Sequence record: MK962753.1
DNA: 64,000 nt
Strand: one strand, 5' to 3'
Source of the DNA: Shigella phage JK32
Shown: positions 11,386-16,930 of the stretch, in pieces
Layout: each line of letters starts with the position of its first letter
Numbering within the stretch: the stretch's first letter is position 1
Program-made: the position numbers and the translations under genes
Notes under the pieces: model-generated
Told to the model about the DNA's origin: nothing
Database searches by the model: none
The model's input: the letters and a program-made list of their open reading frames with translations, nothing else

Positions 11386-12432
11386 ATGAAAATTAAAATT
11401 TTGGATGATGCTAATGACGCCTTAAAAAAAGGCGTCAAAGCGTCTGCTGGGTTTACTCAAAAACAAGACAAGTCAACTTTAACCGCTCAATTTCCATCTG
11501 AACGAGCTAGCGGTAATGATTCGTCTGGTATATACATAAATGACCTTTATAGTAATGGCTTGTTGTTTACTGCCTATGATTATAGAGAACGTGTTACTAG
11601 TTCTCTTCGTGATTTTAGAAATGAGCACAGTACATTACGTGGATTTGGTGCGAATGGGAAAATAGGGTCAAAAGATTTTTATAAAACATCGTTTGACCGT
11701 GATGCTGTTGCTAATATCCTGCTTCCTCGTAGTCAATCAGATGTTGATGCGGTAAGTCACAAGTTTAATGATGTTGGTGAATCTCTCGTTACTCGTGGTG
11801 GTGGTACTATTTCTGGTGCATTATCTGCTATGGCATCGACCGCAGTATTTGGTGGTTTGGAAAGTTTGACAGGTGGTTATCTTGCGGATAAAAACGAGCA
11901 GATCTATAATACCGCTCGTAGTATGTATGCTGGGGCAGATCCTAGAACTAAAAACTACGTCTGGCACTTAACCCCACGTAGTATTGAAGACCTGCGAAAT
12001 ATCCTGATTATCTATGAAACGTTTGTAGAATTGTCTTATGGATCTAGTGGTATTTCCAGTACCGCAAAACAATTAAAAGCGGAAGTTGATGCATGGTATA
12101 AAAAGACAATTCTTTCTAAAACGGTTCCAGAAGGTGCTGATACAACGGGTACTGTATTTGAGGGAATAACTGACTTTTTGACAAACGTAACCACTGTGTC
12201 GAATCCTACTATATGGATGGTCTCAAATTTCGGTAAGAGATCTGCTTATGAGGGACGTAATGACTCTTTCGGACCAGCGCAGATCACTAACGTAAGACTT
12301 GATAAATCACCAGATGGTAAATTTGGTGGCCTGGCAATATCTCCTAACTTACCGAGTACCTTTGTTTTGGAAGTATCGTTTAGGGAGATTCTTACTCTTT
12401 CCCGTGGTACTGTATTTGGGAGTCAATTATAA
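11386..12432 (+). CDS. 48: baseplate-tail tube junction protein gp48
   Basis: 348 aa; synteny and size. Confidence 0.7.
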   Translation: MKIKILDDANDALKKGVKASAGFTQKQDKSTLTAQFPSERASGNDSSGIYINDLYSNGLLFTAYDYRERVTSSLRDFRNEHSTLRGFGANGKIGSKDFYKTSFDRDAVANILLPRSQSDVDAVSHKFNDVGESLVTRGGGTISGALSAMASTAVFGGLESLTGGYLADKNEQIYNTARSMYAGADPRTKNYVWHLTPRSIEDLRNILIIYETFVELSYGSSGISSTAKQLKAEVDAWYKKTILSKTVPEGADTTGTVFEGITDFLTNVTTVSNPTIWMVSNFGKRSAYEGRNDSFGPAQITNVRLDKSPDGKFGGLAISPNLPSTFVLEVSFREILTLSRGTVFGSQL

Positions 12433-13361
12433 TGTTTGATTTAAATGATTTCAACGAACAAGCCGCTAATCTAGACTTTCAGCGATCTAATCTATTTTCG
12501 GTGGCGTTTGCCACCGTTCCTAGTAGCAAGACACAGCAAATTCTAGAAAATTTTGGTGGTGCTATTCATGATATTATACCTGGTAAATTAAATGATTATT
12601 TTGGTATTACAGAGGGTGATTATACCGATGCCGTAACAAATTTGGCTATACATGGAGTGCGTAGAGCCGTTACATCGTCCGGTGTCAAAAAGTATCTTTT
12701 AGGTGCAATGTCATCCCGCGTAGTTCAATCTCTTCTGGGGCAATTTGAAGTTGGTACATATGTCATGGATTGGTTCAATATGGCATATAAGACAAGCGGT
12801 TTGATGGTATATGCTGTTAAAGTTCCAGAAAACCGATTGAGTTATGAAATGGACAGAAACCACAATGCGCCTAACATTAGAATTACTGGACGTGATTATG
12901 ACCCGTTGATTCTTAGCTTTAGAATGGACGCTAGCGCGTCTAATTACAGGGCGATGCAGGATTGGGTTAACTCAGTAGAAGACCCCGTTACAGGGCTTCG
13001 TGCGCTTCCTGTTGACGTTGAAGCAGATATTCAGGTCAACTTACATAACCGAATGGGAGTTCCTCACACGATCATGATGTTTAATGGTTGTGTTCCTGTT
13101 GGTGTGAGTTCCCCTGAATTAAGCTATGAAAATAACAACGAAATCACAACATTCGATGTTACTTTTGCGTATAGGACTATGCAAACTGGTGCTGTAGGAG
13201 AGCAAGCCGCGCGAGAATGGATTGAGGATAAGGCAATAAACCTGATTCAAAATACTATTGGTGATGGTACATCTGGATCGTTGACCGCTGCTGGTAGTGC
13301 GTTATCTCGCCTACAGGGTGTTGGTGGTAGGATAGTTAATTCTATTACTAGGTTGTTTTAA
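12432..13361 (+). CDS. 54: baseplate tail tube initiator gp54
   Basis: 309 aa; TAATG coupling to gp48; synteny and size. Confidence 0.7.
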   Translation: MFDLNDFNEQAANLDFQRSNLFSVAFATVPSSKTQQILENFGGAIHDIIPGKLNDYFGITEGDYTDAVTNLAIHGVRRAVTSSGVKKYLLGAMSSRVVQSLLGQFEVGTYVMDWFNMAYKTSGLMVYAVKVPENRLSYEMDRNHNAPNIRITGRDYDPLILSFRMDASASNYRAMQDWVNSVEDPVTGLRALPVDVEADIQVNLHNRMGVPHTIMMFNGCVPVGVSSPELSYENNNEITTFDVTFAYRTMQTGAVGEQAAREWIEDKAINLIQNTIGDGTSGSLTAAGSALSRLQGVGGRIVNSITRLF

Positions 13362-13365
13362 TGTT

Positions 13366-13388
13366 AAAAGGGGCATTGCGCCCCTTTT
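13366..13388. terminator. bidirectional rho-independent terminator between convergent genes
   Basis: AAAAGGGGCATTGCGCCCCTTTT hairpin with A/T runs on both sides. Confidence 0.65.
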
Positions 13389-13390
13389 AA

Positions 13391-13903
13391 TTAATTTAGT
13401 ATATCTTCACACTGTTTACGCAGTTTATACCGGTATTCTTTAGAACTCAGCAATTGAACTTTTTCATAATCTCCAGACTCATATGCACTTGACAGGTCGT
13501 CTTGATATGCTGCCTCTACCCCGATTCGACAAATGTCATATTTTCGTGCTTTCTTCAAGTCCAATTGTTCTCGCTCAAACTCTTTTCTTCTTTTCTCTAA
13601 ATCTTCCTGATAGCTCTTATTTCTGCGATCTATCTTATCTTGAATCTCTGCGATTCTTTGTTGTGCTTCTTGTGGTAGTCCTATACGCGCTGCTGCCTCA
13701 TCTTTTTTCTGTAGCATATCAATCACGCAATGTTCAGGGTCTTGATATACAAATTGCTTGACTTGCGAATGATTGTACCATTGAACACAATATTCTTCAA
13801 CTTGCTGTATTGATGCTGTTGCGACTCGATAATCTTTTAACCCAGCGCACCCATTAAGCATAGCCACTAAAGCCGCAAGACCAATCAGTTTAATAATTTT
13901 CAT
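13391..13903 (-). CDS. predicted lipoprotein with coiled-coil region
   Basis: 170 aa; signal peptide with lipobox LNGC; ATGA overlap with upstream ART paralog; SD GGTGAGGTGA. Confidence 0.7.
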   Translation of the reverse strand: MKIIKLIGLAALVAMLNGCAGLKDYRVATASIQQVEEYCVQWYNHSQVKQFVYQDPEHCVIDMLQKKDEAAARIGLPQEAQQRIAEIQDKIDRRNKSYQEDLEKRRKEFEREQLDLKKARKYDICRIGVEAAYQDDLSSAYESGDYEKVQLLSSKEYRYKLRKQCEDILN

Positions 13904-14733
13904 TTAGTCACCTCACCGAAAATTGTAAATTGTCTACGATTCTCATCGCCGAAGGATTCTACTACGTCGTTTACCTTTATGCAAGTCCCGCGCGGTAAAA
14001 TTACTTCACATTCGCAAGGATTCCACGCAATCGACCCAACAACAAAACCTTTATGATCTTTTACATCAATTACCCATGATACATTACAAGAATGTTGCAT
14101 CTTTCCGGTCATCGATTCATATCGATTCTCACAATAAAGGCTAGTGCTGTTTGAAAGCCATCCTCCAAAAATGATCGGTGTCATGCTGGTCGACACAAAG
14201 TTTTTAAAGGTAAATTCCTTATCTTCAATAATACGCTCTATTGTTTGAATGTCAAGATGTTGACCACGATAAAGAGTACCGTTTAACTTTTCGGTTTTAT
14301 CCATGACACAATCCATCAAATCGACAATCTCTGATATCTCGTCGGTCATGTCTTCCTCGCCTAAGAGAGCACCATTTACCCATTCGTATTGTTCAGACAC
14401 ATAATCACAGATTGCATTATATTCTGCTGGGGTTATGTTGTTATGTTTGTAATATTTGAATACATTATCTCCAAAATCTTCGGAGTGTACTTCATACATC
14501 ACATTAATGATTTTCTTGACAAATCCATAATCTTGTGTCTCTCGCTCAAGGAAGCGGATAATCTTCACATAATCATCAAAGTTAATCTGATCGCTGATCA
14601 TCTCAGTGATCATGTAACCATTAATCCCCTCAATGCCATATGTTTCGATGTAATTATCCATACGTTCCATCATTGATTCGCGTGAATCTTCTGAAAGACG
14701 AAAATCCTGTAATTGTTTGAACATTTTGAACAT
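13900..14733 (-). CDS. ADP-ribosyltransferase paralog (Alt/Mod-like ART domain)
   Basis: 277 aa; C-terminal region parallels Alt (FKNFVSTSM..IFGGW..ECEVILPRG) with R / S-T-S / E-x-E triad; SD GGGAGG. Confidence 0.7.
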   Translation of the reverse strand: MFKMFKQLQDFRLSEDSRESMMERMDNYIETYGIEGINGYMITEMISDQINFDDYVKIIRFLERETQDYGFVKKIINVMYEVHSEDFGDNVFKYYKHNNITPAEYNAICDYVSEQYEWVNGALLGEEDMTDEISEIVDLMDCVMDKTEKLNGTLYRGQHLDIQTIERIIEDKEFTFKNFVSTSMTPIIFGGWLSNSTSLYCENRYESMTGKMQHSCNVSWVIDVKDHKGFVVGSIAWNPCECEVILPRGTCIKVNDVVESFGDENRRQFTIFGEVTK

Positions 14734-14746
14734 TTTAAACCTCCCA

Positions 14747-14778
14747 TATAACAGAAAACGGGGCTAGTATAAAACTAG
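14747..14778 (-). terminator. rho-independent terminator after alt
   Basis: AAACGGGGCTAGTATAAAACTAGTCCCCGTTT hairpin with U-run on minus. Confidence 0.55.
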
Positions 14779-14811
14779 TCCCCGTTTGAGTCAACCATTA
14801 TTTCTTAAAAA

Positions 14812-16863
14812 TTACATTTTAAATTTATCTGGCATTGCGTCTACAGATACCAGATCAGCGATAAGCTGACGTAGAGTTGCCTTATCTGCTTTCTTACGTT
14901 CGGTTTTAGCTTCGGTAATAAAGCTGGAGAAAGACAGGTCAGAAGCAGGTTTAACAACACCTTCACGGATGAATGCATCACCGTCCGCGATCATCTCGCC
15001 AGATTCTTGTAATGCTGCCAGTTCATTTTTGTTCATAATATGTGCCTCAATGTAATAAGTTTCTTGTGAATCCGTCGATGCCGTAGCACGAGTTACCGTA
15101 TCAAAGGATAACACAACACCGCGAGGAAGTAAAATCTCGCATTCTTTGTAAGCAAATGCTTTGTTACCTACTGGCAATACGGGGATGTTTTCCGCGCCAG
15201 CAATGGAGAAAGCAACATTAGCGCCACCTTCACCGCGAGATCCAGCCATAGAATCTACACCAGCAACGGCACTAGCCACGTTTGCATTCCAGCCGCCAAA
15301 AATGTTAGGTGCAAGGGAAGTGCTCACATAGTTTTTAAAGTAAAACGCTTTTTGCTTACGTGCAGTTTCCCACATTTGCGACCGGAAGTCCATACCACGA
15401 TACAGAATAGTACCAGGATCAAGTTTAACGCCATAGTTGGAGAAGGCATTATCCAGTGCATCGCACATCTTGACCAATTCTTCTGGATCTGCGATGCCTT
15501 CAAACTCTTCCAGCTTACGGTCGGTTAGGAAGTTGTTCATATTGATGTATGCTGCATCGGCATATTCGCTCAACACAAAACCTTCCGCGCCCGGCAGATC
15601 AAGATCAATATCTGCCATCATTTCACCCATGTTGCTAGCAATTGCTTCAAACATACCGGAAGCAACATTACGTAGGGCATCGGTTTTAATCTGTGTGATG
15701 TGACTACGCAGCATTTCAGCTTTTACATCTGCTGGCATAGACTGGTCTACTCGATCCATTGCCAGGGCGGTGATCTTGTTTTCGAATACTTCCTCGCTCA
15801 TGATTTCTTTTAAGCGTTTGATTGATGCTGCGATAACTTCCGCAGACAACGGATCATATTGATCCTGAACTTTTACCAGTTCGCTTACTGCATATTTTGC
15901 ATCGGCTTCGCTTTCAAAAATAGTACGCATGAAACCATAGCGAGTGATAATATCACTTGTCCAGTCATTCAGAGAACGAGCGGTTGAACGTTCTAAGGCT
16001 TGACGATCAATCAGAGTATTAAACTGTTTCTTAGGTTCGGCTTCGGTGATATCTTCTTCTGGTTTAAGATTAATTTTTTCTGGATGATTCACGTAGTCGC
16101 TGTTATATGTCGCTTGAGTTTTCAGCATTTCTTCTTTAGTCAAACGAGATTTAGCCGCTACGCGTTGTTCCGCTTCCGCGTTTCGTTCTTCTTCTGACAC
16201 AAGACTAGCCGCATACGCCTCATCTTTAGTCAGAGATTCACCAGTAGCCTTAGATACCCAGCGATCACCTAAATCACTTTCTACTTTAGTGAACAAGGAT
16301 TCATCAAGTTTAATCCCTTTAATCTTATCAATCGCCATCCCGCGACGCTTGACAACAACTAAAGCGATCTTTTTGCTGGTCATTACTTCCTGCTGGAATA
16401 CTTCAAACTTCGGTGTACGACGCACCAAACGCTCTATAACGCGCTTAACCAGTTCGGTCTTACCTTTCATGCGGGATACGTTAAAACGGAACATAACAGC
16501 GTCTAATTGCGCTTTACGGGCTGTTTCCATAACCACATCAAAAGCACTTGCCATAACTGCAATCGGGTTATCGCCTAGACCATTTTTAAGCTGTACAATA
16601 CGACCGCTTTTGTTCATTTCGCACAGTACAACATGTGCGGTCTTGTCACCCATACGAATGATTTTAGGTGTTTTGTTGGTGAAGTTACAAAGACGGACAA
16701 TCACATCTTTATCGCGTGTCTGTACTGCAAAAAGCTGTTTAGGATTCTGCTTAGGCTTTAAGCACTGTACCGGAGCAATACTGCCAAAGTTTTCTTCCTC
16801 TTCCGTCAACAGCCATTTCTCGAAAGATTCAATCATTAGATCGTCGATTTCTAAGTTAAACAT
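14812..16863 (-). CDS. alt: Alt ADP-ribosyltransferase (injected RNA polymerase-modifying enzyme)
   Basis: 683 aa (T4 Alt 682 aa); ART motifs LYRG / STS / ECEILLPRG near C-terminus; position after gene 54. Confidence 0.8.
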   Translation of the reverse strand: MFNLEIDDLMIESFEKWLLTEEEENFGSIAPVQCLKPKQNPKQLFAVQTRDKDVIVRLCNFTNKTPKIIRMGDKTAHVVLCEMNKSGRIVQLKNGLGDNPIAVMASAFDVVMETARKAQLDAVMFRFNVSRMKGKTELVKRVIERLVRRTPKFEVFQQEVMTSKKIALVVVKRRGMAIDKIKGIKLDESLFTKVESDLGDRWVSKATGESLTKDEAYAASLVSEEERNAEAEQRVAAKSRLTKEEMLKTQATYNSDYVNHPEKINLKPEEDITEAEPKKQFNTLIDRQALERSTARSLNDWTSDIITRYGFMRTIFESEADAKYAVSELVKVQDQYDPLSAEVIAASIKRLKEIMSEEVFENKITALAMDRVDQSMPADVKAEMLRSHITQIKTDALRNVASGMFEAIASNMGEMMADIDLDLPGAEGFVLSEYADAAYINMNNFLTDRKLEEFEGIADPEELVKMCDALDNAFSNYGVKLDPGTILYRGMDFRSQMWETARKQKAFYFKNYVSTSLAPNIFGGWNANVASAVAGVDSMAGSRGEGGANVAFSIAGAENIPVLPVGNKAFAYKECEILLPRGVVLSFDTVTRATASTDSQETYYIEAHIMNKNELAALQESGEMIADGDAFIREGVVKPASDLSFSSFITEAKTERKKADKATLRQLIADLVSVDAMPDKFKM

Positions 16864-16904
16864 TTTATATCCTCTAGTTGATAACCTATAAACCTATATT
16901 TATG

Positions 16905-16930
16905 AAAAAGGGGCTTAACGCCCCCTTTTT
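16905..16930. terminator. bidirectional hairpin terminator
   Basis: AAAAAGGGGCTTAACGCCCCCTTTTT. Confidence 0.6.

Follow-up and report, generated by a model that had tools for sequence, protein, structure and literature searches.

The stretch of the Shigella phage JK32 genome analysed here (sequence record MK962753.1; 64,000 nucleotides (nt), in the following termed the window) carries three consecutive minus-strand open reading frames (ORFs), which encode the Alt protein, a short Alt-like ADP-ribosyltransferase (ART) and a lipoprotein, the last of which converges with gene 54 (Table 1). A sequence-only reading made beforehand had named these three ORFs with sizes of 683, 277 and 170 amino acids (aa), and all of them were read at the coordinates given in the table. 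The short ART gene and the lipoprotein gene appear to form a self-contained two-gene unit of early type, a 'moron'-style cassette consisting of an Alt-derived ART and an envelope lipoprotein, and this is the explanation towards which we lean, with somewhat better than even confidence.

By megablast, the window belongs to the genus Krischvirus, the RB49-like 'pseudo-T-even' coliphages, with phage Whisky as the nearest record (96.6% identity over 13300-14900). In RB49, the counterpart of the short ART, RB49p183, is annotated as 'ADP-ribosyltransferase; similar to C-terminal part of T4 Alt protein', and the counterpart of the lipoprotein, RB49p182, as hypothetical. Altogether, the short ART is annotated or conserved in 58 phage genomes. 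RB49ORF183c, 44RRORF188c and T4 alt.-1/alt.-2 have been listed as paralogous alt duplications (Nolan et al. 2006, PMC1524935). The paralogy of the ART with alt is already published, and the protein belongs, by annotation, to a known family; a characterisation of either the short ART or the lipoprotein was not found in the literature. New are the pair's own predicted promoter within the alt terminator hairpin, the tiny lipoprotein family and the cassette exchange that is apparent from allele comparison.

Table 1. Features of the interval from gene 54 to the upstream region of alt in the window
Feature	Position	Strand	Basis or remark
Gene 54, convergent with the lipoprotein gene	12432-13361	+	sequence
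Bidirectional terminator hairpin separating gene 54 from the lipoprotein gene	13367..13388	.	RNA fold -16.2 kcal/mol, z -4.4
Lipoprotein, 170 aa	13391..13903	-	ORF list and alignment
Mature lipoprotein, 152 aa from Cys19 plus stop, swapped cassette	13391..13849	-	AF2, alignment, identity profile
Lipoprotein signal peptide, residues 1-18, MKIIKLIGLAALVAMLNG, lipobox L-N-G-C, conserved across alleles	13850..13903	-	alignment
Short Alt-like ART, 277 aa, RB49p183 ortholog	13900..14733	-	phrog_15144, PF03496, hhalign, AF2/Foldseek
Shine-Dalgarno-like GAGGTG, within the ART 3' end, 5 nt 5' of the lipoprotein ATG	13909..13914	-	sequence
9-bp tandem duplication (ATGTTCAAA x2), adds MFK to the ART N-terminus (MFKMFK...)	14716..14733	-	sequence compared with Whisky and RB49
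Shine-Dalgarno GGGAGG, 6 nt 5' of the ART start codon	14740..14745	-	sequence
Terminator-type hairpin 3' of alt, 13 pairs and one bulge, then UUUUCUGUU	14756..14787	-	RNA fold -20.9 kcal/mol, z -2.84
Putative sigma-70-type promoter TTGACT-17-TATACT, -35 at 14794-14789, -10 at 14771-14766	14766..14794	-	10/12 consensus match
alt, 683 aa, full-length Alt-like ADP-ribosyltransferase, parent paralog	14812..16863	-	phrog_802 E 8.5e-180 over full length; PF03496 at residues 425-610
CATAAATA, 7 of 8 letters as in the T4 late-promoter box TATAAATA, 33 nt 5' of the alt ATG	16897..16904	-	sequence; putative function

The short ART matches phrog_15144 from end to end (E 4.5e-195) and the Pfam family PF03496 (ADPrib_exo_Tox) over residues 85-269 with 59 bits at a gathering cutoff of 23.4, and in addition it matches phrog_802, the T4 Alt family (E 4e-44). 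In BLASTP, residues 154-260 align to residues 487-593 of the neighbouring Alt (37% identity over 109 residues, E 1e-16), and residues 101-260 align to residues 413-593 of T4 Alt (31% identity, E 2e-23). Moreover, a profile-profile comparison by hhalign, built from eight short ARTs and nine Alt proteins, rendered ART residues 43-277 colinear with Alt residues 365-611 (probability 100%, E 1.1e-41), and the short ART therefore corresponds to the Alt catalytic module: judged from these alignments, it reads as a truncated Alt devoid of the first ~364 and the last ~72 residues and not as a new domain fusion. The sequence-only reading had seen a parallel to Alt in the C-terminal ~120 aa, which is correct as to homology but falls short in extent, as the homology comprises ~235 residues; its assumption of a different N-terminal or targeting domain fails, since just the N-terminal ~42 residues of the ART are without an Alt counterpart. 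Likewise, the conceivable case of an Alt fragment carried over by assembly error is ruled out by the low identity to the neighbouring Alt and by the conservation of the gene in the 58 genomes. In precomputed annotations, PF26846 (Tevenvirinae_ADPRT), which stands for the Alt-specific N-terminal region of ~360 aa, is listed for the full-length alt neighbours only and not for the short ART. The protein measures 277 aa instead of the 274 aa of its relatives because ATGTTCAAA, of which Whisky and RB49 each feature a single copy, is tandemly duplicated in the window. It lacks a signal peptide, contains seven cysteines, and has no similarity to T4 ModA or ModB (BLASTP E at least 0.25; family-profile scores below 4 bits).

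The catalytic motifs claimed at the outset are present, namely R156 (LYRGQ), S181-T182-S183 and E241-C-E243 (ECEVILPRG), and alignment places R, S-T-S and E-x-E in register with those of Tre1, SpvB and Alt. None of these residues (R156, S181-T-S183 and E241-x-E243) varies among eight lineages with identities down to 27%. The AlphaFold2 (AF2) model of the ART (predicted local distance difference test (pLDDT) 77, predicted template modelling score (pTM) 0.76) is poor only at loop 188-213, and Foldseek relates it to C3bot2, Vis, iota Ia, CDTa and Certhrax with E values of 1e-9 to 6e-11 over ~210-220 aligned columns, so that the predicted fold is that of C3/Vis/iota-type toxins. In the R-S-E class, the E-x-E turn is the signature of arginine-specific enzymes, as in Alt. 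Among Krischvirus alleles, the ratio of nonsynonymous to synonymous substitution rates (dN/dS) of the ART according to Nei-Gojobori amounts to 0.02-0.14, and the gene is therefore under purifying selection. As the earlier claim of a distinct second ART had it, an R-S-E enzyme that is probably active lies beside alt, and its motifs make it most likely an arginine-specific (E-x-E type) mono-ADP-ribosyltransferase directed at cytoplasmic host proteins.

Conversely, the 277-aa ORF could be a functionless remnant of a tandem alt duplication, comparable to T4 alt.-1 and alt.-2, which the annotation describes as leftovers of the initial part of alt. Duplication of alt in tandem is indeed common: T2 has two full-length paralogs and Dhakavirus QL01 three, many T4-type genomes contain two or three matching places, and T4 has fragments of one. 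However, an ORF that is intact in 58 genomes, retains an invariant triad down to 27% identity, exhibits the low dN/dS values given above and possesses its own conserved promoter-like site and Shine-Dalgarno sequence does not resemble a decaying gene, and we regard this explanation as exceedingly improbable. Two candidates for further short ARTs were discarded: P0006 proved to be the C-terminal half of a split Alt, and in LQ5, which gave the longest tblastn alignment with the short ART outside Krischvirus, the matching segment is part of an Alt paralog of full-length type (631 aa). In a metagenomic T4-type phage (L010, 2366-4386), Alt is split into two abutting ORFs of 356 and 316 aa, the second of which comprises the catalytic domain and the Alt C-terminal tail.

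Compared to T4 Alt, the short ART shares the homologous catalytic module with R, S-T-S and E-x-E, the IFGGW and EVILPRG signatures and the same alt-gene 54 locus, but besides its truncation at both ends it differs in the loop past S-T-S (188-213), where the model is of low confidence. With the C3, Vis, iota, Certhrax and Tre1 toxins it has the predicted fold and the catalytic triad in common; on the other hand, identity to these toxins is 12-20%, and the short ART is devoid of a secretion or translocation domain, as would befit a phage-encoded intracellular enzyme.

The 78-nt gap between alt and the short ART harbors a sole promoter-like site of the type TTGACT-17-TATACT, which is also annotated as a promoter in GEC-3S. 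Its spacer and -10 box sit within the hairpin downstream of alt, which, together with the adjoining UUUUCUGUU, is evidently the alt terminator. In seven lineages (the window, L001, L003, L005, L012, L014 and L015), including metagenomic relatives with ARTs of 25-45% identity, TTGAC is invariant, a -10-like box is kept and the hairpin stem is maintained through compensatory changes. The second hairpin, beyond the lipoprotein gene, is annotated in GEC-3S as a terminator on both strands, and the ART-lipoprotein unit is bounded by terminators at both ends. Upstream of alt, the occurrence of CATAAATA is such that late expression of alt would fit; no TATAAATA box was found in the sequence inspected around the short ART gene. 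Directly before CATAAATA (16904-16897), a further terminator hairpin is situated at 16910-16924 on the minus strand.

T4 Alt is a capsid-packaged arginine-specific mono-ADP-ribosyltransferase. From the arrangement of these signals we infer that alt is expressed late and packaged as in T4 and that the short ART and the lipoprotein constitute an independent unit with predicted early timing. In the course of its emergence, the short ART would have kept the Alt catalytic module, lost the N-terminal ~364 residues and gained a sigma-70-type promoter of its own in place of the late-type box of alt; owing to this loss and this promoter, it would most likely be made in the cell soon after infection and not be injected from the capsid. 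The lipoprotein gene would be transcribed together with the ART gene, with a separate Shine-Dalgarno site for its translation.

The model case of host takeover by ADP-ribosylation is the T4 set of Alt, ModA and ModB. In RB49, a single ModB-like gene is located beside srd, and its product is 33% identical to T4 ModB. Together with Alt and the short ART, Krischvirus therefore encodes three ARTs, like T4 but in another composition, and the short ART would represent the third enzyme of this set. It resembles T4 ModA and ModB in that it is compact (200-277 aa), probably has an early promoter and would complement an injected Alt in a set of three ARTs per phage, whereas it has no detectable sequence relationship with them and occupies a different locus, Krischvirus having its separate ModB-like gene. 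Hence, the genus appears to have arrived at a three-ART set by a different route, by combining Alt with a single ModB-like enzyme and a shortened Alt copy that has an early-type promoter of its own. If the substrates of the short ART were compared with those of injected Alt, it might become apparent to what extent an ART owes its targets to the catalytic module alone.

The contexts read comprise Krischvirus as well as the divergent metagenomic lineages L005, L012, L014 and L015, with lipoprotein identities down to 21%, and in every one of them the gene order is alt, short ART, lipoprotein and, where the contig reaches that far, convergent gene 54. The junctions between ART and lipoprotein gene in these contexts are overlaps of 8, 4 or 1 nt or a gap of 1 nt. 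No lipoprotein gene of this type follows the full-length alt paralogs of T2, QL01 and LQ5. Owing to the conserved adjacency, both genes can be said to travel as one unit, which is compatible with a shared role and also with plain inheritance of a two-gene cassette. In the window, the ART stop codon TGA (13902-13900) and the lipoprotein start codon ATG (13903-13901) share letters as ATGA (13903-13900), just as the sequence-only reading had observed. Its use of this overlap as evidence of a partnership is not supported: within the first 50 kb of RB49, overlaps occur in 31 of the 90 pairs of neighbouring genes and measure exactly 4 nt in 12 of these, and an ATGA overlap is commonplace in these genomes and not by itself meaningful.

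The lipoprotein precursor begins with MKIIKLIGLAALVAMLNG, followed by the putative cleavage site and CAG, and features K2 and K5, a hydrophobic h-region (LIGLAALVAML) and the putative lipobox cysteine Cys19, which is invariant; the motif LNGC, taken as a lipobox in the sequence-only reading, is present, albeit with a non-canonical Asn at -2. Four further cysteines (39, 59, 125 and 165) are invariant in the whole family, which is consistent with two periplasmic disulfides. According to the sorting rule of the E. coli Lol system, lipoproteins with a +2 residue other than Asp are directed to the outer membrane. Since the +2 residue of the mature lipoprotein is Ala, outer-membrane anchoring is predicted. 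The AF2 model (pLDDT 84) consists of helices only, among them one of 63 residues (81-143), and 53% of residues 76-124 are charged; the long charged coiled coil noted earlier corresponds to this predicted helix. Taken together, these predictions describe an all-helical protein that is attached to the outer membrane on its periplasmic side and probably contains two disulfides.

A profile search in 1.84 billion representative proteins returned ten hits, nine of which are true family members of 103-174 aa; the tenth, a repeat protein of 489 aa, is spurious. In the phage collection, the family is confined to 58 Krischvirus records. Comparison of the lipoprotein with PDB profiles, Pfam, NCBIfam and PADLOC gave sub-threshold results throughout, no sequence or fold match to characterised phage lipoproteins was obtained, and the matches in BFVD are its own orthologs only. 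T4 alt.-3 was considered as a counterpart and rejected, as it has no signal peptide and no similarity to the lipoprotein. One member of the family, P0021, is a 103-aa variant of the RB49 type that diverges past residue 64 and looks frameshifted in some assembly.

The lipoprotein stands out from its surroundings when closely related phages are compared. RB49 and E26 are 99% identical in gp48 and 100% identical in gp54, ART and Alt, but their lipoproteins share 33% identity. Exactly from the lipobox to the stop codon, nucleotide identity falls from >90% to ~50% with sharp breakpoints, and in megablast comparisons of the window with other Krischvirus, identity resumes at the signal-peptide segment 13850-13903. 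The 58 genomes contain at least three groups of lipoprotein alleles, namely that of the window and Whisky, the E26 type (~48% identical to the window allele) and the RB49 type (~29%). The lipoprotein gene of the window itself looks recombinant, as judged from allele comparison: its 5' end (13847-13903) encodes an E26-type signal peptide and lipobox (LALVAMLNGC), the mature part is of the Whisky type, and the breakpoint is at the lipobox. Synonymous divergence (dS) of the lipoprotein is 0.7-1.7, as compared to 0.15-0.32 for the adjoining ART in the same phage pairs (a ratio of 3.5-5.5), and its dN/dS amounts to 0.1-0.25 for alleles of the same group and does not exceed 0.68 for alleles of different groups. 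The alleles are therefore old and functional and shuffled by recombination, and not fast-evolving in place; the mature lipoprotein is exchanged in the form of such old, diverged alleles, and the signal peptide and flanking genes stay constant. Apart from the lipoprotein, RB49 and E26 differ in gp38 and distal gp37, in several homing-endonuclease indels, in small ORFs at RB49 116.6-119.2 kb and in RB49p261-262, and the partition of the lipoprotein alleles matches neither that of the gp38 locus nor that of the p261/262 locus.

T4-type phages possess polymorphic internal proteins in which a conserved capsid-targeting sequence is followed by a variable body. The lipoprotein is similar to these in that it combines a short conserved targeting signal with a body exchanged between phages, and dissimilar in that its signal would lead to the Sec/lipoprotein pathway and the envelope instead of the capsid.

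Several points weigh against the explanation as an early two-gene unit with an envelope lipoprotein. Promoter-like matches in the region are not enriched over shuffled sequence (12 found, 10.3 expected), and the ART promoter is a consensus match backed by conservation alone, from which transcription is predicted. The adjacency of the two genes could merely reflect conserved synteny of the alt-gene 54 interval. The window lipobox, with its Asn at -2, falls outside the usual consensus [LVI][ASTVI][GAS]C, although most homologs, including that of the nearest relative Whisky, have the canonical LTGC. Moreover, pairwise Nei-Gojobori dN/dS of the lipoprotein is <1 everywhere and gives no sign of positive selection, at dS values near saturation that render the ratio uninformative on diversifying selection; an arms race is therefore not demonstrated. 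Finally, the lipoprotein is devoid of an informative relative in sequence or fold, and its role is a guess from context.

The sequence-only reading had considered the lipoprotein as an immunity or export partner of the ART, and a model in which it physically works with the ART for immunity, export or targeting draws on the strict conservation of the gene pair, which overlaps or abuts nearly always in all five lineages examined, as well as on Tre1-like ART effectors, which have an adjoining cognate immunity gene; among proteins of solved structure, Tre1 is the nearest by sequence, with a marginal E of 0.06. On the contrary, the two proteins are predicted for different compartments: a Sec/Lsp signal and five conserved cysteines of periplasmic type are found in the lipoprotein, and the ART lacks a signal peptide and needs cytoplasmic nicotinamide adenine dinucleotide (NAD). 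Profile searches of the lipoprotein found no ARH, macro, Tri1-like or other immunity domain, lipoprotein alleles of 33% identity beside an ART of 100% identity are hard to square with a specific protein-protein interface, and gene overlaps are, as outlined above, common in RB49. We therefore deem such a partnership very improbable; instead, the two proteins are predicted from their sequences to be co-regulated, to reside in different compartments and not to form a toxin-immunity pair.

Variable alleles of a lipoprotein that is of early type and directed to the outer membrane in a virulent phage could also mean that it blocks the phage's own outer-membrane receptor, in the manner of T5 Llp or Cor, with the alleles tracking receptor specificity. 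Krischvirus phages indeed use different outer-membrane protein receptors, Tsx and OmpA, via the variable gp38 (PMC12032242). However, the lipoproteins of FL04 and FL15, which use Tsx, and of FL20, which uses OmpA (PMC12032242), are 98-100% identical. Furthermore, the gp38 allele of E26 also occurs in phages of the RB49-type lipoprotein group, AV108 combines an E26-type lipoprotein with a different gp38 allele, and the lipoprotein resembles none of the characterised phage lipoproteins in sequence or fold. Masking of the own receptor is thus disfavoured and, in our estimate, rather improbable.

Another model assigns the lipoprotein a role in envelope architecture, either as an Lpp-like helical strut or as a modulator of lysis or lysis inhibition that alters periplasmic geometry or outer-membrane tethering. 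The continuous predicted helix of 63 residues would suit this function, the Lpp/OprI alanine-zipper model (NCBIfam NF040598) matches weakly over the full length (E 2.5e-4), and most alleles end in Lys, as Lpp does. But the score of 21.5 bits does not reach the family cutoff of 43, the window allele and several others end in Asn and not in Lys, RB49 already has spanins of the Rz/Rz1 type (pseT.2 and pseT.3), a holin and rI, and a structural housekeeping role leaves the allelic cassette exchange unexplained. This model is accordingly judged to be quite improbable. The idea that the lipoprotein is itself a spanin was rejected, as pseT.2 and pseT.3 are encoded elsewhere in RB49 and the lipoprotein gene follows the ART under an early-type promoter. 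As to the C-terminus, the alleles ending in Asn (13394-13396 in the window) are those of the window, Whisky, P0010 and P0019; the Lys at the end of most alleles, together with the sub-threshold Lpp/OprI match, would be compatible with a possible peptidoglycan attachment as in Lpp.

Within the early two-gene unit, the lipoprotein may thus serve an envelope-level function early in infection, for instance the exclusion of, or protection from, other phages or envelope-acting factors, and exclusion or protection is the likeliest role, though held with low confidence; superinfection exclusion, which the sequence-only reading had also named, is thus a candidate. T5 Llp, Cor, T4 Spackle (Sp) and S. 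thermophilus Ltp are envelope proteins that phages use against other phages. By analogy, the lipoprotein would be a small envelope protein with a signal peptide that is probably made early, cysteine-containing and by prediction helical like Sp and presumably lipidated like Llp, Cor and Ltp; dissimilarities are the lack of sequence or fold similarity and alleles that do not track the receptor. A tblastn search of T4 Imm, Sp, ModA and ModB against the window and ~155 kb of RB49 (100-108 kb left out) matched only ModB, which is circumstantial evidence that the niche of Imm and Sp may be open.

A more far-reaching version would see the locus as a two-compartment early module not described before, in which the highly exchangeable, helical lipoprotein, disulfide-bonded and anchored in the outer membrane, founds a class of its own among periplasmic factors for exclusion or anti-defence, maybe replacing Imm/Spackle, its allele diversity reflects rivalry between T4-type phages in the same cell or a contest with host defences of the envelope, and the substrates of the ART differ from those of injected Alt; in this full form we hold it to be unlikely. 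Should the lipoprotein act in exclusion or protection, it would affect the compatibility of phages in cocktails and fill the apparent Imm/Sp gap in the genus. With its narrow distribution and a mature part that is exchanged between near-identical phages in therapy collections, this orphan protein constitutes a natural experiment, and the finding as such is real, of moderate interest and chiefly an experimental lead.

In the vicinity of the locus, a mosaic boundary was observed in the 3' end of gene 54, with a breakpoint near 13220 (region 11386-13361, plus strand). The window gp48 is 75% and gp54 86-87% identical to the RB49 and E26 proteins, and the adjoining Alt and ART are 98-100% identical, with Alt alone at 99-100%.

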